Position numbers and translations under genes: made by a program. Below the pieces are notes generated by a model. That model was given only the letters and a program-made list of their open reading frames with translations. It made no database searches and was not told where the DNA came from. A stretch of 64,000 bases of DNA. Origin: a virus. Position 1 is the stretch's first letter. Each line of letters opens with the position of its first letter. The DNA is taken from the IMG/VR virus record IMGVR_UViG_3300027826_000001. One strand, written 5' to 3'. This document shows, piece by piece, positions 6,436 to 60,231 of the stretch.

Positions 6436-6822
6436 TTATTCAGGACCGCCAATTTTGGTACTATCAGGGCGAAGGTCAGGCGGAATAGTATGTTGATTAT
6501 ATTGTTTTTGACAGTAGGAACATAGGAAAATATAATTATGCTGATGATCCCGTTGCCCAACAATAGCAGACTGTCCATTGGGTTTCTTATGGGGACAGTA
6601 AGCTTGTACTGCTTCTTCCTGTTTTCGTGCCTTTTCCATCTGAAGTGCGGCATCTAATCGCGCCTTCTTATGTGAATTTTCTGCTTCTTCCTGCTCTTTA
6701 ACCTGCTTCGAAACCTGCTTCAACTGGAGAGCCAGCAAAGCCTTTCTAAGTTCAGCTTCTTCTTGGTCCACCGGCAATTGATGCTCGGAAGGAATAACTA
6801 GAGTTCCATCGTTTTTAGGCAT
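6436..6822 (-). CDS. hypothetical protein (128 aa), coiled-coil N-terminus plus Cys/His C-terminus
   Basis: ORF track. E/K/Q heptad-like N-terminal half, then YCPHKK...CSYCQ. Confidence 0.7.
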   Translation of the reverse strand: MPKNDGTLVIPSEHQLPVDQEEAELRKALLALQLKQVSKQVKEQEEAENSHKKARLDAALQMEKARKQEEAVQAYCPHKKPNGQSAIVGQRDHQHNYIFLCSYCQKQYNQHTIPPDLRPDSTKIGGPE

Positions 6823-8294: not shown

Positions 8295-8372
8295 TGGATG
8301 CGGGGGCCGCGATTTGAACGGGCGATCTCTAGGTCATGGGCCTAGTGAGTTACCAGACTTCTCCACCCCGCA
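8295..8372 (-). tRNA. tRNA-Met-like (anticodon CAU), initiator-like, CCA encoded, atypical T-stem
   Basis: Minus strand UGCGGGGUGGAGAAGUCUGGUAACUCACUAGGCCCAUGACCUAGAGAUCGCCCGUUCAAAUCGCGGCCCCCGCAUCCA. It has a 7-bp acceptor stem, anticodon stem CUAGG/CCUAG, loop CCCAUGA, and T-loop UUCAAAU. The T-stem pairs only if one C is bulged. Confidence 0.65.
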
Positions 8373-8393
8373 ATACTATTATACCGTGGAAGG

Positions 8394-8465
8394 CTGTGGA
8401 GGTAGGAATCGAACCTACATATTACTGATTAACAGTCAGTTCCATTACCGTTATGGTACCCCACA
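8394..8465 (-). tRNA. tRNA-Asn (anticodon GUU)
   Basis: Minus strand folds as UGUGGGG-UA-CCAU-AACGGUA-AUGG-A-ACUGA-CUGUUAA-UCAGU-AAUAU-GUAGG-UUCGAUU-CCUAC-CUCCACA-G. This is a clean cloverleaf. Confidence 0.85.
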
Positions 8466-25995: not shown

Positions 25996-26024
25996 TTGAC
26001 ATGACCTCCACCTTATGGTATGCT
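25996..26024 (+). promoter_or_regulatory. consensus promoter of the plus-strand island
   Basis: TTGACA 25996-26001, 17-nt spacer, TGg-TATGCT 26016-26024. ATG 26030 follows only 5 nt after the -10, so the mRNA is leaderless. Confidence 0.7.
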
Positions 26025-26029
26025 TAGGT

Positions 26030-26212
26030 ATGGTTAAAGGCTATACGATTCGAAAACGTAAAGATTGTGATAGATATGAACTAATCGTGAGGGATAAGAA
26101 CTATGGGCGATTTTATGGGGGTCTTTTCACATCTGAAAAAGCAGCTAAAAAAGCTTACAAGGAGCGTTGGCATGTTCAGCCGACAGGAAAGCTACACACA
26201 GGCACTTCTTAA
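26030..26212 (+). CDS. AP2-like DNA-binding domain protein (60 aa)
   Basis: MVKGYTIRKRKDCDRYELIVRDKNYGRFYGGLFTSEKAAKKAYKE fits the three-strand plus helix AP2 pattern seen in phage and HNH-associated AP2 domains. The ORF-track start 26015 lies inside the promoter. Confidence 0.6.
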   Translation: MVKGYTIRKRKDCDRYELIVRDKNYGRFYGGLFTSEKAAKKAYKERWHVQPTGKLHTGTS

Positions 26213-26408
26213 AAAGTTCAAAGGTGCCGGAGATAAGACGGATTACGTAACGTATTGGATTCCGTCAGGGTTTGCTGATCCTAAGAAACACCTTATTATC
26301 AAGGGGATAGAGTATAAGATTGTAGAACTCTATGCCACATATAAGAAAGAACATGTAGAGGCATATCCGAAGGTTTTTAAAACTGCTATCCCCGAAATTG
26401 GAACGTAG
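26172..26408 (+). CDS. hypothetical protein (78 aa)
   Basis: In frame with ORF-track 26103..26408. AAGGAG lies 7 nt before ATG 26172. Overlaps the AP2 gene end by 41 nt. Confidence 0.55.
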   Translation: MFSRQESYTQALLKKFKGAGDKTDYVTYWIPSGFADPKKHLIIKGIEYKIVELYATYKKEHVEAYPKVFKTAIPEIGT

Positions 26409-26802: not shown

Positions 26803-27135
26803 TTAAAAAGTCTCTTCCCAAAAGGTTATGAGAGATGATTTTTTAGATATCCCATATATGGCCGATGTATTCATTATCTCAATATCTCCAGGAGAATGTA
26901 GTAGGTAGCCGGTGGTGAGAGTTACACTGCTATTACCTAGAAACACATCATTACCCGAGTTATTTGATACTATTAACCGTGTCCGGTGAGAGTTAGGTGA
27001 GAGTATTAGTACCTTCGTGGCACCTAACGTTACCTGTCCTGTATTGAACGTGGGCGCACTATTGGTAAAGTTTAAATTTAAATCATTACCCTGTGCGTCT
27101 ACAATCCGTACAGTTGGAATATTGTTTACTAACAC
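26803..27135 (-). CDS. hypothetical protein (110 aa)
   Basis: ORF track. GTG start. Confidence 0.65.
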   Translation of the reverse strand: MLVNNIPTVRIVDAQGNDLNLNFTNSAPTFNTGQVTLGATKVLILSPNSHRTRLIVSNNSGNDVFLGNSSVTLTTGYLLHSPGDIEIMNTSAIYGISKKSSLITFWEETF

Positions 27136-27168
27136 ACATTACGCTCTACTTTAATTCTCCCATTCCAC

Positions 27169-27197
27169 TTGACTTCCACTCAGGGCCATGATACAAT
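27169..27197 (+). promoter_or_regulatory. consensus promoter with no ORF behind it
   Basis: TTGACT 27169-74, 17-nt spacer, TGa-TACAAT 27189-97. Confidence 0.65.
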
Positions 27198-27203
27198 ACT
27201 TGT

Positions 27204-27291
27204 AGACCCCCCCGAAGGGTCAGGAGAGGGTTGTATGGCGGTTTTCCTCCTTTCGCTGCCATCCCCTTTCCGGCCTTTCATAGTCCTTTTT
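27204..27291 (+). ncRNA. candidate ~90-nt structured small RNA with CCUCC loop
   Basis: Hairpin 1 is GACCC/GGGTC (27205-21). Hairpin 2 is GGAGAGGG-ATGGCGG (27223-41) paired to CTGCCAT-CCCTTTCC (27256-71) with loop UUUUCCUCCUUUCG. Two G-U pairs exist only on the + strand. T5 run at 27287-91. Confidence 0.5.
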
Positions 27292-27377
27292 AAAAAACTA
27301 ACTCCTTTATTTTCAACTACATAGGGCAAAAGCGGCCCTAGTGTTTTTAGGTCAGTAAGTCTTTTGTTTTCAACTAG

Positions 27378-27851
27378 TTACATTTTTGAAGGGGGACCGT
27401 AGATACTTTGAATTTCCTTGGATAGCTCACCGGGGCTTACTTTCCAACGTTTCTCGCTATTCGCAGCAAGCAACCCGGTACCTTCTAAGACTTCGAAACA
27501 TACTTCACTACAAAACCGGTCCCTATCATCATGGACTTTCCAAGGACCCAAGAACCCTAGTAACCCTAACCAATCGTACTTTTTACCTGTCAAGAGTTTT
27601 GCAAAATTAAAAACTTTTAATCCAACTTGATTATCCAAAGAAAGGGTGTATACGTCGAATAATCCTTTTAACTCTATTATCTTGAAACCACTTTGCTCTC
27701 CTTCTCGGGCACTGAAGCAATACGCCATATCCACCGGCCCATCTAACCACAACTCACAATGGCTATAAGGGCTATGTGTCCACCACCCAATTCCCTTACT
27801 CCAAAAACTCCCTGTATCCTTGGCCCTTTTAAAAGCAATTTTAATAAACAC
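27378..27851 (-). CDS. permuted papain-fold (YiiX/C92, NlpC/P60-like) amidase; endolysin candidate
   Basis: His-before-Cys order: HSPYSHCELW ... DRFCSEVCFEVL. GTG start with GAGG 8 nt upstream. Confidence 0.6.
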   Translation of the reverse strand: MFIKIAFKRAKDTGSFWSKGIGWWTHSPYSHCELWLDGPVDMAYCFSAREGEQSGFKIIELKGLFDVYTLSLDNQVGLKVFNFAKLLTGKKYDWLGLLGFLGPWKVHDDRDRFCSEVCFEVLEGTGLLAANSEKRWKVSPGELSKEIQSIYGPPSKM

Positions 27852-27956
27852 GATGGTAACCTCGTACTTTAATTATAAAAAATTTTTCAAAATCAAATAC
27901 TTACTCCATTACACGGGAAGCTCCTGGGTCGCTTCCGCAGCCACCCCCCCACCCAA

Positions 27957-28177
27957 GGTACTGGTACGGGGGTCCTACGGGGGTACTTAAGTACTACGGA
28001 ACCTTCTTGGTACTTTGGTACTAAGGTCTGGAATGTAAAGAATTGTAAAGATTTGTAAAGTAACGGGCACGTAGTATAGTACGATAGTTCTAATAGTAAT
28101 AGCCCAATAGTACTAAAGCCAATAGTACTATAGTATTACGCCAGTAGTACTAAGTATAAAATGAACCGTTAGTACTA
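27957..28177. repeat. dense field of short direct repeats and palindromes built on GTAC
   Basis: TACGGGGGT x2 (27965, 27976). Palindrome GTACTTAAGTAC (27983-94). TTGGTACT x2 (28007-22). TGTAAAG x3 at 10-bp phase (28034-60). CCAATAGTACTA x2 plus 2 variants (28104-28177). Confidence 0.85.
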
Positions 28178-28224
28178 CGTGCCATACTGTCTTTACGGTA
28201 TACCGTACTAGGGTAAAAAAGTTA

Positions 28225-28253
28225 TTGACTTCCGGGGGACTGTGTGATAGCGT
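28225..28253 (+). promoter_or_regulatory. promoter-like element facing ~300 nt of non-coding DNA
   Basis: TTGACT 28225-30, 17-nt spacer, TGa-TAGCGT 28245-53. Confidence 0.45.
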
Positions 28254-28499
28254 TTGGCCCGTGAAATAGGGCATTTGGTTAATAAAACGAGTTAACTATG
28301 GTTAACATGGAAACTTAATCGTCGGTATTATTAGCCCGGATTGTGGCGAATAATGGGCGAATAAATTAACGCGTAAGTGACTGATAATCCCAAAAATGGA
28401 CATAGCGTTTAAAAGTGATTAGAAGCCCGTGGTAGGGACGAATTATTTTCAGGCCTGTTAGACATGTCCCCTGAAAGGCGATTAAATGGTCGGGCTGTA

Positions 28500-28534
28500 A
28501 TGAAAATGGCCCTTTACTTGCTAGGTAAAAGGCC
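28500..28534 (-). terminator. intrinsic terminator of the minus-strand accessory operon
   Basis: Minus strand GGCCUUUUAC-loop-GUAAAGGGCC forms 10 bp including one G-U, which would be a C-A mismatch on the + strand. Followed by AUUUUCAUU. Lies 26 nt after the stop at 28560. Confidence 0.6.
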
Positions 28535-32817: not shown

Positions 32818-34149
32818 TTAAAGTTCCTTAATATCTTGTGGGTCACTTTCCGCCGTCTCAATATCTACCGTCCCTTTGTCCAACTGATCGGACTCGTATT
32901 TAAGGAACGCAAAGTTTTTAATCTTGAAGGGTTCGCAGGAATATAGTTTATCAGCTTTCACTACTACACCTTCTGCGGGGACTTCGTTATTATTGAAAAT
33001 ACAGGGTAAATCGCCAAGATATTCCTTTTCCACGTCTTGCAGGAAATCACTTTGCCAGTCCTGTATTAAACCCGGCTTTGTAGTACAGAATTTACTAGCC
33101 TTTCCATAATAGTGCTCAACCACCGTATGCAAGCCCCATTTTTCACAAGCTTCTTTAATTTGGGGCCAAGAGTATTCTGTTACTTGTCCATCAGTATCCG
33201 TATGGGTAATACGATATACAATAAACAAGTGACTACCCTTTTCACAACCATAATGATAACCCGGTTGAATAGGACTTCCCTCCGGGGTATAGCCCACTAT
33301 CTCGCCGTACACAGTAACGCCTTTAGGCAGGACAGGGAAAACTTCCTTTCCCACGATACCCCAAATATCTGAGGGGTAGAAATGTACTGCGGTATGACGT
33401 TCCTCTTGGGCTATACCCTTTACGACACGTCGGGAGGACCATATATACTCGTAACAAGTATCTTGAATACGGACGCCTACTAGCTTTAGCAACTTTTCGA
33501 ACCAAGATAGCGGACGCTTACACAGGACGTTTGCGTAGACAGCGGATGTCCCATGCCATTTGTCAGTAATACTAATGATATCCCATGGGTTAATACGGTG
33601 TACGTTTTTCCGAAGTTGCTCCGTGTCTACATGGAAATGGAACTGTCCGTCTACAATACGATCTTCAATACGGGGAGCTTTACGACCCTGCTTATCACGC
33701 GTGGAAGCGGGATTATGGGCCGGTACGTACTTACGGCATATCTCATGGTCCCCCAGGGTATCGAATTCACTTCCTAGGGGCAGTTCTCCAATATTAAGAT
33801 AGCTTAATGCATCCTGGGGTATCCAGAAACCTTCTGACTTGTGGCCGCGAAACTTGACCGCCTTAACACGTCTGGATTGTTCAAAGAAACCACCACGGGC
33901 AAGTGGGTCTACATTTCCCCATTCGGCCTTACGATAGAGATTGTTATGGGATACAAATTCGTGGGATAATTGGCATTCAAGGGGAAAGTAAAGACCGATG
34001 TCTCCGGGTTGACATTCTTTCCCTACTATGATATGATTACCCTGCACTATGGCACCCTTGACGTTATCGCAATTAGGCAGGGTTACAAATTTGTCCAATG
34101 CTACCACCGTGGCACAGTAGTTTGGGTTTTTTGGGGCGGCTAGTTTCAT
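32818..34149 (-). CDS. ATP-dependent RNA ligase (Rnl2/Rnl5-like, DRB0094-type N-terminal module)
   Basis: Nucleotidyltransferase motifs I DKWHGTS, III VYGEIVGY, IV EGVVVK, V FKIKN. OB-like N-terminus (VVALDKF...GDIGLYFP). I prefer ATG 34149 because the ORF-track GTG 34173 lies inside the promoter spacer. Confidence 0.75.
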   Translation of the reverse strand: MKLAAPKNPNYCATVVALDKFVTLPNCDNVKGAIVQGNHIIVGKECQPGDIGLYFPLECQLSHEFVSHNNLYRKAEWGNVDPLARGGFFEQSRRVKAVKFRGHKSEGFWIPQDALSYLNIGELPLGSEFDTLGDHEICRKYVPAHNPASTRDKQGRKAPRIEDRIVDGQFHFHVDTEQLRKNVHRINPWDIISITDKWHGTSAVYANVLCKRPLSWFEKLLKLVGVRIQDTCYEYIWSSRRVVKGIAQEERHTAVHFYPSDIWGIVGKEVFPVLPKGVTVYGEIVGYTPEGSPIQPGYHYGCEKGSHLFIVYRITHTDTDGQVTEYSWPQIKEACEKWGLHTVVEHYYGKASKFCTTKPGLIQDWQSDFLQDVEKEYLGDLPCIFNNNEVPAEGVVVKADKLYSCEPFKIKNFAFLKYESDQLDKGTVDIETAESDPQDIKEL

Positions 34150-34163
34150 AATGCTATGAGGAT

Positions 34164-34192
34164 AGCGTAACACAGGTGAGATAGATTGTCAA
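34164..34192 (-). promoter_or_regulatory. consensus promoter of the RNA ligase gene
   Basis: Minus strand TTGACA 34192..34187, 17-nt spacer, TGt-TACGCT 34172..34164. 14 nt to the ATG, so the leader is very short. Confidence 0.7.
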
Positions 34193-34216: not shown

Positions 34217-34249
34217 ACCTAGTGTTAAAAATTCTTAATACAATTCTTG

Positions 34250-34278
34250 TTGACAATCCATGCCTCTTGTGTTAGTCT
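34250..34278 (+). promoter_or_regulatory. consensus promoter of the main plus-strand operon
   Basis: TTGACA 34250-55, 17-nt spacer, TGt-TAGTCT 34270-78. Confidence 0.7.
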
Positions 34279-34306
34279 TAATTTAAGCTTGAAAGGCGAA
34301 CGAGGA

Positions 34307-34522
34307 TTGGGATCAATAAAGGCGAAATACCTATACAAGGCCTTGTTACGTAATGGGTGGGCCGTAGATGGACAAACGGGTTCGCATGTAAAGTTTGTTT
34401 CTAGTAACCCCGCTTCGCCACGCAAACACTTTACCCTGTGTTTTCAGAAGGGCGTAGAAGTAGGGCCTAAGATGCTGGCAAGGATACTTAAGGATACAGG
34501 ACTACGATACGAGGATCTATGA
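34307..34522 (+). CDS. hicA: HicA-family mRNA interferase (toxin-type RNase)
   Basis: ...YLYKALLRNGWAVDGQTGSHVKFV...GPKMLARILKDTGL matches the HicA dsRBD-like pattern with the GSH histidine. The ORF-track start 34247 lies in the promoter, so the real start is TTG 34307 or 34289. Confidence 0.7.
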   Translation: MGSIKAKYLYKALLRNGWAVDGQTGSHVKFVSSNPASPRKHFTLCFQKGVEVGPKMLARILKDTGLRYEDL

Positions 34523-36200: not shown

Positions 36201-36310
36201 AAAGGATAGGGTTAATGGGGTTTTTAACACTAGGTCACAAAAACAATAGGACCTGTTAGAACCCAAACTATCCTTTTCTAAACTATAAGTTATTGATAAT
36301 AAAGGAGTTA

Positions 36311-37543: not shown

Positions 37544-38431
37544 ATGAAACTATACATGACTAAAGGACTTCCAGGGTCCGGTAAAACTACTTGGGCGCGG
37601 GATATGATGAAAGTTAATGATTCGATTAAGCGGGTTAATAAAGACGATATTCGGGCTATGATTGGTAAGACTCGGGAAAATGTGGTCTTAGATATTCGAA
37701 ACGATATCATTTGTCAGCTTATGAAAGCAAATTATAGCGTTATCGTAGACGATACTAACTTTAATCCTATTCATGAACTAAAACTCAAAGAAATAGCTAG
37801 TATTTTCGGGGCTGAGTTTGAAATTAAGGACCTTACCCACGTCACTTTGGAAGAATGTATTGCTAATGACCGTAAGAGATTGGGTACATTAGGCCACGTT
37901 GGAGAGAAGGTTATTCGAGACATGCATAAGAAGTACCTAAGTAAATATCCGTTTCAAAAAGAGGCGCTTATTTATCCTGAACCCCCGGCTTATAACCCTA
38001 CCTTACCGGACTGCATTATAGTAGATATTGACGGTACTGTGGCAACTATGAACGGACGTGGACCCTATGACTGGGATAAAGTAGATACAGACTTGCCCCG
38101 TAAAGAAGTATTAAAAATTATCAAGAGTGTAAAACTGGGAAGTGGAGCAGAGGTTATTTTTGTAAGTGGCCGGGATGGGTCTTGTAGGCGTAAAACTATC
38201 TATTGGCTTCAGAGTAATTTTGATTGGTCGCCTTTTCACCTATATATGCGAGAAGCCGGAGACATGAGACGAGATAGCGTGGTCAAGCGGGAAATATATG
38301 ATACGCATATTAAGGGCCATTATAACGTCATAGCTATTTTTGATGACAGGCCCCAGGTAATACGTGAATGTTGGTATGCACTGGGCTATCGGGATAGAGT
38401 GTTTAATGTTGGGGATATGAAGGAATTTTAA
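37544..38431 (+). CDS. bifunctional polynucleotide 5'-kinase/3'-phosphatase (T4 Pnkp-like)
   Basis: N-terminal P-loop GLPGSGKTT. C-terminal HAD motif IVDIDGTVA plus VSGRD and FDDR. Domain order and size match T4 Pnkp. Confidence 0.8.
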   Translation: MKLYMTKGLPGSGKTTWARDMMKVNDSIKRVNKDDIRAMIGKTRENVVLDIRNDIICQLMKANYSVIVDDTNFNPIHELKLKEIASIFGAEFEIKDLTHVTLEECIANDRKRLGTLGHVGEKVIRDMHKKYLSKYPFQKEALIYPEPPAYNPTLPDCIIVDIDGTVATMNGRGPYDWDKVDTDLPRKEVLKIIKSVKLGSGAEVIFVSGRDGSCRRKTIYWLQSNFDWSPFHLYMREAGDMRRDSVVKREIYDTHIKGHYNVIAIFDDRPQVIRECWYALGYRDRVFNVGDMKEF

Positions 38432-49328: not shown

Positions 49329-51389
49329 GTGTCTCGTAAGTCACAAATAGTACTACCCGGTAATGACTCAGTACAAACGGGCTTATTTACTTCGAGTACT
49401 AAGGAAAAGTATTACCCTAAAGTCTATCGAGATGAGGGTAATTATTGGCGTATTGTAGAACAGGGTATTAAGGAAGGTTATCTTGGACTTGATTTTGAAT
49501 TTCCAGAAACATATCGCGCTTCCGTTGTTGGAGTGGCTAGCAAAGGCCAGTGCTGTGCTATCCCGGCAACTACAAATATTACATCTAAAACAATCCTACC
49601 TTGTCTGGAAAAAGGAATCAAACTTGTTGGCCACAGTGTCATCGGAGCAGAACAAAAAGTAATTAAAGTCACATGCGGGATTGACACCCCCTTATCCCTA
49701 TACGATGACTCCATGCTACGGCACTATCTCCTAAATGCGGACTTAGCAAAAGCACCCGACAAGACAGAAGCCGATGATGCAGGGGCATTGGGCTTTATGG
49801 GTCTGTGGACAGCAGCTAGTATGGTTCTGTTATGGCCTAACTGGAAACAGTGCCAAGGAATGGACTGTGAACAAACCATCTGTCCCACTCATGACGTATT
49901 AGGCTATTGCGCTGTGGATGCAGCCGCCTCTCTTGAAGCTAACTACTTGCAAATAAAGGACTTACAAAAGTGGAAAGTACCGGATAAACTTTATCAGGAA
50001 CTTAAAGAACTAACCTATATCGCCCAATGTATGCAGGAGCAGGGGGTACGGGTTAATATGCAGTTCGTTAAGGAAATGGAGAAGAAGGCCGGGGAGTACA
50101 AGTCTTCACTTTTTGACGAAAGTAAAGAATTTAATCCCCGTGCTCCGTCTCAGGTTGTCGAGTGGTTTAAGAAAAACGGTATTCAGTTAGCCGGTAATGA
50201 TAAAGTATCTATTCGCCGTTCCCTGGAGAAGACTGCGGAGAAGTACGGATACTCGACCCATGACGAAACAGGTAAGTTTAGTCTGGAAGCCTTGGAACTA
50301 TCTGCTACCCTTCCTAAAGAACTTGACGCCCTATACCGTCTATATGAATACAAAAGTGCAGGAAAAGGTTTGGACCCTTGGTTTGGTGACAAATATATTA
50401 AGAATGACTGCTATATTCACCCGCGTTTTATTACTATCGGTGCTAGTACTAGTCGTTGGAGCAGCAGCCGTCCAAACTTTACCAATATACCTGCTAGGGG
50501 GTTTGGTTCGCTGGTTAAGGCCGCAATAGTTCCGCGTGATCCTTCCTTAGACCTTATCCATGCAGATAGTAGTAATTTGGAACTTAGAGTCTGCATATAC
50601 CTTGCCGGTTACGACCCTTCCGAGATATTACCCGGTGACCCCTTTACGTGGCTTGTCGAAAATAGTAATGGAGCTTTTGAAGAGATTGCCCGTATCAATA
50701 ACGACACTCCACGAGGGGTAGCTAAGACCGTATCCCATGCGAGTAATTATCTTGAGGGTATAAAAATTCTATATCCCAGGGACCTGATTAACCCTTTTTA
50801 TAAGAAACAGATAGACGCGGGAGCCTTGTATGTCTATAGAGATTGGGAATATTGTGGTGGGGTGGTGGCATTTACCGGAGCAAACCTTGCCGAGCGTATT
50901 TTTGGTAACAAGACGCTTGAATCACGGAAGCGAGCGCTTGCCATTACGGAAGAGGTATATTTCAAGCGATTGCCTATGCTTAGAAATTGGCATAGGAAAA
51001 TACTCCATGAAATTGAAAATAAAAAATATATCCAGTATCCCACAGGTCACTTCTTAAGACTATACGGTAACCCTACCGATAACGCGAAGATGGGGGCGGC
51101 AGCTTATGGGCAGGGAGTAGGAGCGCATTACGTACAAGGGCAAGTGTTGAGGTTTTACCGGGAGACGGGTAAGATTCCATTAATGTTTGTTCATGATTCC
51201 CTGGATTTTGAGATACCTAGGACCTGGACGCCTGAGGAAGCTAAAGATTTCATTAAACTTATGGGCGAAGAAAATGACAGGTTGCCGGGTTTCAAATGCC
51301 CATATAAAGCGGCTAGGGGACAGTGCGGGTTGGAGTTTGACGAGAAGAAAAAAGAAACCCATATCCCAGGAGCAATGATAAAGATATAG
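49329..51389 (+). CDS. family-A DNA polymerase with 3'-5' exonuclease domain
   Basis: Exo I GLDFEF. Motif A IHADSSNLELRV, motif B PRGVAKTVSHASNYL, motif C FVHDSLDFE. GTG start. Confidence 0.9.
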   Translation: MSRKSQIVLPGNDSVQTGLFTSSTKEKYYPKVYRDEGNYWRIVEQGIKEGYLGLDFEFPETYRASVVGVASKGQCCAIPATTNITSKTILPCLEKGIKLVGHSVIGAEQKVIKVTCGIDTPLSLYDDSMLRHYLLNADLAKAPDKTEADDAGALGFMGLWTAASMVLLWPNWKQCQGMDCEQTICPTHDVLGYCAVDAAASLEANYLQIKDLQKWKVPDKLYQELKELTYIAQCMQEQGVRVNMQFVKEMEKKAGEYKSSLFDESKEFNPRAPSQVVEWFKKNGIQLAGNDKVSIRRSLEKTAEKYGYSTHDETGKFSLEALELSATLPKELDALYRLYEYKSAGKGLDPWFGDKYIKNDCYIHPRFITIGASTSRWSSSRPNFTNIPARGFGSLVKAAIVPRDPSLDLIHADSSNLELRVCIYLAGYDPSEILPGDPFTWLVENSNGAFEEIARINNDTPRGVAKTVSHASNYLEGIKILYPRDLINPFYKKQIDAGALYVYRDWEYCGGVVAFTGANLAERIFGNKTLESRKRALAITEEVYFKRLPMLRNWHRKILHEIENKKYIQYPTGHFLRLYGNPTDNAKMGAAAYGQGVGAHYVQGQVLRFYRETGKIPLMFVHDSLDFEIPRTWTPEEAKDFIKLMGEENDRLPGFKCPYKAARGQCGLEFDEKKKETHIPGAMIKI

Positions 51390-55438: not shown

Positions 55439-55447
55439 TGGTATAAT
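55439..55447 (+). promoter_or_regulatory. extended -10 element TGgTATAAT
   Basis: CCTCCACCCTATGGTATAAT is homologous to CCTCCACCTTATGGTATGCT in the 26 kb promoter. No -35. Confidence 0.4.
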
Positions 55448-55469
55448 ACTAGTAGACCAAGCGATAGAG

Positions 55470-55515
55470 GGAACCAAGCAGCGGAGTAATCCGTGTAGCT
55501 ATGGTTCCTTTTATT
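55470..55515 (+). terminator. terminator at the convergence point of plus and minus blocks
   Basis: GGAACCA (55470-76) pairs with TGGTTCC (55502-08), with an inner GCGGA/TCCGT stem, then TTTTATT. Confidence 0.5.
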
Positions 55516-55557
55516 GTAGCCCGAACTTTAAACGCTAAGTTATTGATTTTAAAGAAG

Positions 55558-55929
55558 TTATTTTTTGAAGAGGGGCAAGGGCGGGAAACTATGACGCCGG
55601 TATTCTTCATATTCTTGTCCGAAAGCTTTAAGCAGTACTTGTTCTTCTTTGCAGGCCCTTACTATCTGTATAGGTATCCCAATGAATAGGATAAAAAGAA
55701 AAAAGTACCACCAGCCAAACATAGCCGCTATCGCTAACCACATAGACATACCGTAAACATACACGGGATGCCTTATATATTTAAAAGGACCGCCCTTAAT
55801 AAAAGCCCTAGGCACTCTAGGTTTCCATAAATTAGCTTCAACAAAACGTAAACACATATACGCTTCTGTCGTTTTCTGTCTACAATGTAAGATAAATAAC
55901 AGTTCTAAGAAATGGACAAGGGAGGGCAT
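55558..55929 (-). CDS. ICMT/PEMT-type membrane methyltransferase-like protein (short, 123 aa)
   Basis: IRHPVYVYGMSMWLAIA ... EEQVLLKAFGQEYEEYRR matches the C-terminal catalytic half of isoprenylcysteine carboxyl / phospholipid methyltransferases. Confidence 0.65.
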   Translation of the reverse strand: MPSLVHFLELLFILHCRQKTTEAYMCLRFVEANLWKPRVPRAFIKGGPFKYIRHPVYVYGMSMWLAIAAMFGWWYFFLFILFIGIPIQIVRACKEEQVLLKAFGQEYEEYRRHSFPPLPLFKK

Positions 55930-58327: not shown

Positions 58328-60231
58328 TATTTAATATTTCTAGCTTTCAATAAGTCTTCAGCTTTAACATAGTTCTTACTCGCACCCTTAGCCCCTGTCC
58401 CACCTACGTCTGGGGGACCGACTTCTTTACCATAAATACTCTTATAAGCATCGGGATGGAAAGCTCTTACCACGTTTTCAGTAGTCCAATTTCTAACCGG
58501 CCCCGTAGCCTTAAGTTCTTGATTATGCTGCAACTGTTGGTTAAAAGTATCTTCATACTCATAAATCTTACCGGCCAGAGTCTTTTTACCCTGAGCCAAG
58601 TTATCCAACGCCTTACCAATATCTTCAACAAACTGCGTACTTCGGAAACCCTGCACAGCCGCGTGATGAGCACCCAAAATCTGAGCCGCTTGAGCAAACC
58701 GTTCGAATTTATCAGCCGGGACATTACTCCAGGATGTAGGATCAGCGTACTTGGTAGTAAGTTTCGTCCACATACCTTTTAAGTTACCCAGATCGCTAGG
58801 AGAGAAGTCTTTAAGCAACCCGTACATCTCCTGAGCCTTAGCCGCACCTTTAAGAGCCGCGTCGTTCTTAGTCTGTACACCGGCCTGTACCTTCGCACCA
58901 ATAGGAGCCGAATGAATATAAGCCGCTAAACGAGGATCAGTACCCGGAGGAAGATCATCCTTGAAAGTCAAACCGACTGGGGCAACGGGCTTACCTTGAT
59001 AAGCGGAACTAATATCCGTATAATACTTTTGAATATCATCCCGGTATTTATCGGGCTTACCAGTTACAGGATCAATAGCAGGAGTTTTAGGAGCCTGTTC
59101 ACCACCACCCTGCGTAGCATTCACCCCTGGACCCTGACTTTGAGCCGCACCTTGTCCACCAGTCATATAGTTCGGTAAAGTTCTCTTATCAGCCGCCATT
59201 GGTCCACGATCAGTTTGAACCACGGTAATATTCTTAGCACCCAAAGCTTGATTACGGATATCCATTTGCTGCTTAATCTGTTTAGCCGTATCAAAATCGC
59301 CCTTGGCTACAGCCCGGTTAATGGCATTAATATCCTGTAAGTCCCTGTCACCCTTAGTCGTAGATAGACCTTCATTACTCTGCACCTGTCCCACAGTACG
59401 AGCCTTTGTATATTCGTCTTCATCGGCCAGTAAGTCATGATGAATTTTAAGCATTTCAACTTGAGCTTCTGGTTGACCCGCAGCTAGTTTACGTTCTGCA
59501 TCTTCATATCGGGCAATATAGACCATTTTTTTAGCATTATCCAAATTACCCTGTTGCTCATATAACTTCGACCGAACATCTGTAGCAGCCTGCCGAGTCA
59601 AGTTACTTGTAGCATTATTGGTCAAACTTGTCATATCCCGTAGTGCCCAAGTTCGCATTTGGTTATTATATTGAACTTCCTTGGCAATGGGATTAATTTC
59701 GGATTGATATTCCTGTAACGCCTGATGCTGTGCTCGATCCCTAGCCGGTACGTAGTTTTCCTTCTGAGCCATCGCACGGCCCATCTCACTTAACACGGCT
59801 AAAGGATACTTCTTCCAATCAATTTTATCCTTATACTGTGGTTCCTGTCCCTCTGGCATAGGTCCGACAGGTACAACGGGTACTTTCTTAATACCCATCA
59901 TACTATTATAGATATCGTGTGCCCGCTGTTCGACCGTATATTGTGACCGCTTTTGAAATTCCAACTCCGCAGCCGAAGGTTTATTAATCTCTTGTAATTG
60001 TTTACTCAAATTCTGGAACATATTTGTATATGTATCCAGGAAAGATTGATTACCTGTCAAACCACCAGCCGCACCACCTGTACCACCAGGAATAGTCGGA
60101 GGAAGCCCACCTGCCTGTGAACTCTGTAGCGCCTGCATAACAAGAGGATTGACAGATTGATCGGGCGCACCTGGAGCCTGTTGTGTACTACCCTGTGGCA
60201 AAGCACTAAGAATGTCGTTAATATCTGGCAT
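58327..60231 (-). CDS. large virion/internal protein (634 aa)
   Basis: ORF track. Start overlaps the stop of the upstream gene. Confidence 0.8.
   Translation of the reverse strand: MPDINDILSALPQGSTQQAPGAPDQSVNPLVMQALQSSQAGGLPPTIPGGTGGAAGGLTGNQSFLDTYTNMFQNLSKQLQEINKPSAAELEFQKRSQYTVEQRAHDIYNSMMGIKKVPVVPVGPMPEGQEPQYKDKIDWKKYPLAVLSEMGRAMAQKENYVPARDRAQHQALQEYQSEINPIAKEVQYNNQMRTWALRDMTSLTNNATSNLTRQAATDVRSKLYEQQGNLDNAKKMVYIARYEDAERKLAAGQPEAQVEMLKIHHDLLADEDEYTKARTVGQVQSNEGLSTTKGDRDLQDINAINRAVAKGDFDTAKQIKQQMDIRNQALGAKNITVVQTDRGPMAADKRTLPNYMTGGQGAAQSQGPGVNATQGGGEQAPKTPAIDPVTGKPDKYRDDIQKYYTDISSAYQGKPVAPVGLTFKDDLPPGTDPRLAAYIHSAPIGAKVQAGVQTKNDAALKGAAKAQEMYGLLKDFSPSDLGNLKGMWTKLTTKYADPTSWSNVPADKFERFAQAAQILGAHHAAVQGFRSTQFVEDIGKALDNLAQGKKTLAGKIYEYEDTFNQQLQHNQELKATGPVRNWTTENVVRAFHPDAYKSIYGKEVGPPDVGGTGAKGASKNYVKAEDLLKARNIK

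Follow-up and report, generated by a model that had tools for sequence, protein, structure and literature searches.

A candidate antisense small RNA with its own predicted promoter and terminator and a conserved 5' oligo-C tail in an environmental phage

Gene context and promoter

The 64,000-nt viral stretch analysed here (the window), part of a 67-kb Logan contig, carries the large terminase, portal and major capsid genes on the minus strand downstream of the locus under study, and elsewhere encodes a DNA polymerase, a primase/helicase, an RNA ligase, a polynucleotide kinase and two tRNAs, the latter being the only gathering-level Rfam matches in the window. The nearest large terminases share 23% identity and belong to cyanophages such as PP and Pf-WMP3. 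A megablast search of INPHARED with the window returned no close relative, the flanking proteins likewise have no close relatives in INPHARED, and IMG/VR holds no close relative of the window; the phage appears to represent a previously undescribed lineage. The genome has an RNA repair set consisting of the RNA ligase (phrog_968, E = 6e-61), the polynucleotide kinase (phrog_505, E = 4e-82), tRNA-Met and tRNA-Asn. In addition, a HicA toxin-like ORF (34247-34522, plus strand; Pfam PF07927, E = 1.2e-10) is present in a divergent control region, directly 3' of an early-type promoter with TTGACA at 34252.

The locus itself is a 242-bp gap (27136-27377) between two minus-strand ORFs of 110 and 157 aa (Table 1), with a promoter pointing into it. 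The original prediction described a gap of 240 bp lacking plus-strand ORFs; the gap is there, but it does contain short plus-strand ORFs (one of 51 aa with a TTG start and one of 29 aa starting at an ATG), none of which is conserved in relatives. The label of lysin given to the 157-aa gene is plausible and unproven, as the family profile has only a weak, full-length resemblance to the YiiX permuted-papain fold (E = 0.14). A sequence scan of the gap detected neither a terminator nor a sigma70-like promoter on the minus strand, and read-through mRNA is therefore expected across the locus. On the plus strand, there is no gene 3' of the putative RNA for 7 kb.

The proposed promoter is present as TTGACT-17-TACAAT (27169-27197), matching 10 of 12 consensus positions in our promoter scan and carrying the TG of an extended -10. 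With a loose threshold, promoter-like sites in the 4.5-kb neighbourhood are not enriched (12 vs. 8.9 expected by chance). A strict class, defined by a consensus -35, a 17-nt spacer and TGn-TAnnnT, occurs nine times in the whole window vs. 0.8 expected from block-wise dinucleotide shuffles, an 11-fold enrichment that makes a chance match at 27169-27197 unlikely. The other sites of this class are mostly located 5' of genes and in the same orientation as the gene. Further promoters face minus-strand genes: a perfect TTGACA-17-TATAAT at 6508-6536 (plus strand; chance expectation ~0.01) lies inside the minus-strand gene 6436-6822 and may drive another antisense transcript, and another antisense promoter site is found at 58996 (plus strand). 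Finally, a 101-aa plus-strand gene is embedded in the minus-strand structural block (25996-26408 including its own consensus promoter, TTGACA-17-TGtTATGCT). A gene with the same position and orientation is present in the related contig L003, and in the window its transcript would run antisense toward the terminator of the small RNA.

Table 1 Features of the locus and related elements in the window. Handles beginning with L denote loci on metagenome contigs.
Feature	Position	Strand	Remarks
110-aa ORF, GTG start	26803-27135	-	missed by the gene caller of the collection, yet conserved in L002
-35 hexamer TTGACT	27169-27174	+	same hexamer and same spacing also in L002
Extended -10 TGaTACAAT	27189-27197	+	TACAAT 27192-27197, TG 27189-27190
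Predicted small RNA, ~80-88 nt	27204-27291	+	start inferred from promoter geometry, end from U-rich tail
C7 run	27207-27213	+	in unpaired 5' tail AGACCCCCCC, 27204-27213
25-bp interrupted hairpin, predicted terminator stem	27214-27279	+	minimum-energy fold; base GAAGGGUC/GGCCUUUC
Apical loop UUUCCUCCUUUC	27243-27254	+	CCUCC at 27246-27250; within 24-nt block 27237-27260 identical in L002
U-rich tail UUUCAUAGUCCUUUUU, predicted terminator U-tract	27276-27291	+	weaker than in relatives
Motif copy 2, 18-nt TTGAAAATAAAGGAGTTA, ~25 nt extended	27299-27316	-	adjoins RNA 3' end; beside the RNA in 7/7 loci
Small hairpin TAGGGC-AAAAGCG-GCCCTA, then GTGTTTTT	27322-27348	+	candidate back-up terminator
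Motif copy 1 TTGAAAACAAAAGACTTA	27356-27373	-	just after stop codon of 157-aa gene; inverted in L002, L006, L007
157-aa gene	27378-27851	-	YiiX-like putative peptidase
Conserved structured element, ~130 nt	27870-27995	-	L001 2860-2990; also L002-L007, L141; 8/8 loci
Second, paralogous unit	55439-55520	+	promoter/initial-transcript block, hairpin, UUUUAUU; no C-run
Further motif copies	36283-36310, 55533-55560, 49947-49964	+	
RNA repair and tRNA genes	32818-34173, 37544-38431, 8295-8465	-, +, -	

Structure and conservation of the predicted RNA

The predicted transcript folds with a free energy of -34.8 kcal/mol (z = -3.3), a value not reached by any of 200 shuffles, while its reverse complement has a z-score of +0.6, in agreement with the plus-strand structure proposed originally. 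That structure had been drawn as two hairpins, of 5 and 15 bp. In the minimum-energy form there is instead one 25-bp hairpin with a single 12-nt loop and five G·U pairs, leaving the 5' tail A-G-A-C7 unpaired, and the GACCC/GGGUC hairpin is only an alternative. The wobble pairs, which had been taken to indicate a plus-strand RNA, do so in the relatives as well, since each homologue has one to five G·U pairs, which the opposite strand would have as A·C mismatches. Runs of C7 or G7 are rare, with only two in 64 kb, the C7 of the tail and a G7 at 27944-27950.

The long hairpin is predicted to be the intrinsic terminator of the RNA itself, a feature overlooked in the first reading and missed by a simple terminator scan owing to the long loop. 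The U-tract of the window is weak, consisting of UUUC, 7 nt and then U5, the last being the T5 run at 27287-27291 that had been noted before. Because homologues have their U-tract right at the 3' foot of the stem, the functional tract in the window is suggested to start there as well, from 27276 onward. Further downstream, the stem of the small hairpin at 27322-27348 is kept via compensatory changes in L002, L003, L004 and L141, and a clear T-run follows it in the window only; there, it may serve as a back-up terminator catching read-through of the plus-strand RNA.

Relatives were reached via homologues of the 157-aa protein, and all of them are metagenome assemblies. Six contigs (L002, L003, L004, L005, L007 and L141), on which the protein is 76% to 42% identical to that of the window, carry the downstream region and together with the window form a comparison set of seven loci; in L142 and L143 the element is either not reached or not contained, and these contigs are outside the comparison. 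In IMG/VR, JGI metagenomes and GTDB genomes, the 157-aa protein has more distant homologues that show no synteny and no element, a motif scan of IMG/VR gave chance matches only, and a word-indexed search with the downstream 123-aa protein found no homologues.

All six relatives have the same kind of RNA unit at the same place 3' of the 157-aa gene, on the strand matching the plus strand of the window. A TGnTAnnAT extended -10 is found 6-8 nt 5' of the A/G that precedes the C-run in 5/7 loci (window, L002, L003, L005 and L141). The C6-7 run is kept in six of the seven and stays single-stranded in all minimum-energy folds; L004 has its C7 internally, after an extra 5' hairpin, and L007 has a promoter-like site and no C-run. 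Directly after the C-run comes a long GC-rich hairpin whose sequence differs between loci. Compared with shuffles, the homologue hairpins have z-scores of -2.6 to -7.0 on the plus strand vs. +0.5 to -2.6 for the reverse complements, and by raw free energy the plus strand comes out ahead in five of the seven loci, level in one and behind in one. At its foot, the stem of the homologues has GA(G)AA-CGG paired with CCG-UUUUC and runs into U-rich tails (CCGUUUUCAUUU, CCGUUUUUCAU, CCGUUUUGGUUUAU and similar) on the plus-equivalent strand only, the other strand having a G-run after the hairpin instead of a U-tract. All seven loci have a GC-rich hairpin and a trailing U-tract on the plus strand, arranged as in an intrinsic terminator.

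Since MAFFT could not bring the diverged hairpins into structural register, stems were compared in hand-made structural alignments scored by script. Between the window and L002, this hand alignment (which is not a formal covariation test) contains eight compensatory double changes, three single changes that keep the pair (e.g. from G·U to a Watson-Crick pair), 12 identical pairs and four that are broken or interrupted by a gap. Covariation extends to the basal stem in more distant loci, for example from CGG/CCG to CAG/CUG in L004. The hairpin is kept across the seven loci, as had been asked of a genuine structure at the outset.

No conserved ORF is present on either strand: the plus-strand ORFs of the window are absent from relatives, and several homologues have no start codon at all within the transcript. 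We rejected a protein-coding reading of either strand for lack of a conserved frame, a minus-strand ORF of 33 aa reading the conserved block in another frame in L002. Likewise rejected was a terminator acting on the minus strand, where the hairpin is followed by a G-run rather than a U-tract and has a z-score of ~0. Among 4227 Rfam models, including C4, VrrA and other sRNAs, no family reaches its gathering threshold for the RNA; the best match of a permissive local scan is VrrA (18 bits vs. a threshold of 50, E = 5.5), and a scan of five relatives matched no family. Taken together, the conserved extended -10, the covarying hairpin, the U-tract confined to the plus strand and the lack of a conserved ORF provide good support for a real non-coding plus-strand RNA of ~80-88 nt with its own promoter and terminator, and we consider its existence probable.

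The most eye-catching feature of the first reading, an anti-Shine-Dalgarno CCUCC loop, turns out not to be the conserved one. The loop with CCUCC is identical only in the closest relative, L002, as part of a 24-nt block (27237-27260) that is unchanged beside diverged stems. The loops of the other homologues are C/A-rich as well and have UCCG, AACC, CACCA or CAACC (L003, L004, L005 and L141) or, in L007, UUUUCUCCAC, which keeps only CUCC. The ribosome-binding sites that the loop was thought to mask, said to be AAAGGAG(G) throughout the genome, were overstated: any upstream GGAG, GAGG, AGGA or GGGG occurs at ~46% of 80 ORF starts, GGAGG occurs at few, and AAAGGAGG sites are not in general use. 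Target prediction, which covered the 80 phage initiation regions of the window, singled out no target, with pairing no better than for shuffled seeds for either the loop (p ~0.75) or the 5' tail (p ~0.90). Masking of ribosome-binding sites by the loop is thus not supported as a conserved function of the RNA family, although the 24-nt CCUCC block may have a lineage-specific role. The primary-sequence feature that does persist in these alignments is the unpaired 5' A/G-C6-7 tail, which the first reading had overlooked.

A second unit, a recurrent motif and an upstream structured element

The window contains a second, paralogous unit at the junction of two convergent gene blocks. Its promoter/initial-transcript block, TGGTATAATACTAGTAGAC, shares 16 of 19 bases with that of the first unit, TGATACAATACTTGTAGAC; L002 has the same ACTAGTAG. 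Folding of the second unit is also stronger on the plus strand (z = -6.9) than on the minus strand (z = -3.0). Both units are trailed by a conserved motif of 18-25 nt, TAAsTTA-TTGAwwwyAAAGrAsTTA, which after the second unit lies at 55543-55560. This motif has nine matches with at most two mismatches in the window vs. 0.8 expected and, in either orientation, flanks the small covarying hairpin that all relatives have 3' of the 157-aa gene. The motif is more probably a site for protein binding than a promoter.

Another conserved structured element lies 5' of the 157-aa gene and is composed in order of an invariant AGAAGGTTCC, a covarying hairpin, GACCCC, a G-run predicted to pair with the GACCCC, a hairpin with a GNRA cap and an A6T6 palindrome. 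In every locus the gene strand gives the lower free energy of the two, with modest z-scores. It has no Rfam match and is a candidate new cis-regulatory or non-coding RNA. The non-coding region 5' of the 157-aa gene extends over 700 bp and, at 28020-28310, is dense in short repeats of kinds also seen in relatives: TAGTACT-type repeats, three CTTTACA at ~11-nt spacing (28034-28060) and a GTTAAC-N4-GTTAAC palindrome (28292-28307). This stretch may be a control region or a replication origin. A sub-threshold likeness to the manA RNA motif at 28358-28522 (plus strand; 15.5 bits vs. 55.2, E = 0.46) is probably due to chance.

Possible modes of action

Its position makes the RNA complementary over its full length to any transcript that leaves the 157-aa gene on the minus strand and extends into the following genes of the structural operon. 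The 5' end of the RNA lies ~70 nt 5' of the next start codon in the window and ~40 nt in L141, L003 and L005. An antisense brake on read-through, one of the two roles originally envisaged, is the best-fitting mechanism, and our working model, which we favour tentatively, is that of a cis-antisense RNA of the λ OOP kind, transcribed by the host RNA polymerase, that would target leader or read-through mRNA on its way into the structural genes and use its oligo-C tail as a toehold. In this model, a sigma70-type host RNA polymerase would start at about A27204, ~7 nt after the -10, and the RNA, with its unpaired A-G-A-C7 tail, would end at the hairpin and U-rich tail of its own terminator, any read-through perhaps being caught at the small hairpin with the T5 run. 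The single-stranded oligo-C tail would then nucleate pairing with the G-run of the mRNA (C7 vs. G7), after which the complementary hairpins of the two RNAs would zip up to form a long duplex. Given that both partners are stable hairpins, a single-stranded toehold of only G and C is a sensible nucleation site, and the C-run may have been kept for this purpose, even though a pure cis-antisense role needs no conserved C-run because the target covaries automatically. The duplex would be cleaved by an RNase III-type activity, or expression downstream otherwise uncoupled or lowered. As it does not cover the downstream ribosome-binding site, cleavage or uncoupling is likelier than a direct block of translation, and translation would be affected only indirectly, if at all. 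Transcriptional interference from the convergent promoter itself may add to this.

Phage antisense RNAs with which the candidate can be compared are λ OOP, which promotes RNase III-dependent decay of cII mRNA, P22 sar, directed against ant, and BTP1 STnc6030, directed against late/tailspike transcripts (PMC12197685). Like λ OOP, which has 77 nt and is made from the promoter pO, the RNA is predicted to be short, to use host RNA polymerase, its own promoter and its own intrinsic terminator, and to be transcribed against a phage operon with complementarity to the mRNA expected near a gene junction. In contrast to λ OOP, which belongs to a temperate phage and lies across the 3' end of cII, it is wholly intergenic or leader-located, 5' of genes of the structural module, has a conserved 5' oligo-C tail and shows no similarity to OOP in sequence or in Rfam; no lysogeny genes were detected in this phage. 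P22 sar and STnc6030 restrain a specific phage gene or late transcript (PMC12197685), and our candidate resembles them as a small, promoter-driven RNA that is cis-antisense by position. However, sar covers the ribosome-binding site of ant, which has no equivalent here as the site would be left uncovered, and STnc6030 is a prophage-expressed RNA that brings about superinfection exclusion.

Several other explanations have to be weighed against cis-antisense action. The RNA could act in trans, with the C-rich tail and loops serving as a seed for G-rich host or phage mRNAs or for another RNA. In RsaE/RoxS-type sRNAs of Firmicutes, unpaired C-rich motifs can in principle pair with G-rich Shine-Dalgarno regions, and the candidate shares with them the unpaired C-rich motifs (the C6-7 tail of six of the seven loci and the C/A-rich loops), the hairpins and a terminator at the end. 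It differs from these sRNAs, which have UCCC in loops, by the homopolymeric C6-7 at the extreme 5' end, the absence of an Rfam match and of any enrichment for ribosome-binding targets, and by being phage-encoded and cis-antisense by position. The tail is the one primary-sequence feature kept across diverged homologues, always unpaired, and the C/A-rich loops and the CCUCC apical block kept intact in L002 despite changed stems would also suit a trans seed. Nevertheless, no initiation region of the window beats shuffled seeds with tail or loop, C7 mismatches a canonical GGAGG, and CCUCC is not conserved beyond L002, so that we regard trans action as doubtful. A specific version of it is suggested by the G7 at 27944-27950, the only other such run of the window, which lies in the upstream structured element 95 nt 5' of the 157-aa gene and has a G4-G7 counterpart at the aligned position in five of the six loci that have a C-run RNA. 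The oligo-C tail is similar to one strand, GACCCC(C)G, of a helix within this element, with a duplex between RNA tail and element of -20.3 kcal/mol in the window, and might displace that strand by invading via the G7, thereby switching the structure of the element and expression of the flanked gene. Since L003 has the C7 but no G-run in its upstream element, and the G-run is predicted to pair internally with the GACCCC, we assign this reading a low probability.

Alternatively, the convergent promoter and terminator could act at the level of DNA and transcription, with the RNA as a by-product: a polymerase at 27169-27204 would hinder polymerases arriving from the 157-aa gene, and the strong terminator would shield that gene from antisense transcription, including that from the plus-strand gene at 26103-26408. 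A near-consensus promoter facing the operon, a terminator within ~80 nt in all homologues, the antisense consensus promoters at 6508 and 25996 and the second promoter-terminator unit at a convergent gene junction are all consistent with this, but it explains neither the conserved unpaired C-run nor the perfect preservation of the 24-nt apical block in L002 next to diverged stems, and we think it unlikely. A regulated promoter-proximal terminator, i.e. an attenuator or a unit resembling λ PR'-tR'/6S, would by conditional read-through yield a long antisense transcript over the 157-aa gene and its upstream control region. As in λ PR'-tR', where a constitutive promoter closely followed by an intrinsic terminator gives the short 6S RNA, the terminator is immediately 3' of the promoter; the weak U-tract of the window and the second hairpin with T5 downstream would fit conditional termination, and the homopolymer at the very start of the transcript in five homologues (a C-run at +3 to +9) could support CTP-sensing reiterative transcription, although we know of no precedent for such control at a C-run. 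However, the λ unit is directed toward the late genes and needs the Q protein to open it, whereas the present one faces away from all genes and against the operon, with no plus-strand gene for 7 kb downstream; moreover, no antiterminator pairing is evident, as the RNA lacks a G-run able to pair with the C7. Such regulation is very improbable. Much the same can be said of an ordinary intergenic terminator or DNA-level element without dedicated function, next to a fortuitous promoter match. The chance-level frequency of loose promoter matches and the escape of the long-looped hairpin from the simple terminator scan speak for it, yet the extended -10 at a fixed distance in 5/7 loci, the 11-fold enrichment of high-scoring promoters, a U-tract that opposes the orientation of the flanking genes, the G·U pairs in the stem and the 16 of 19 bases shared with the paralogous unit all argue against it, making it quite improbable.

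Overall, the sequence comparisons point to a new family within a known kind of RNA, the antisense small RNA that a phage encodes together with its promoter and terminator, here with a conserved oligo-C 5' end that is unusual. If confirmed, this family would extend the few phage antisense regulators on record and would imply RNA-level control over the timing of structural-gene expression in environmental phages, with the 5' oligo-C tail as an unusual and testable determinant of the gene. Should the tail invade the upstream element, the two conserved non-coding RNAs flanking one gene would constitute, in a new phage lineage, an RNA-RNA regulatory pair not described before.
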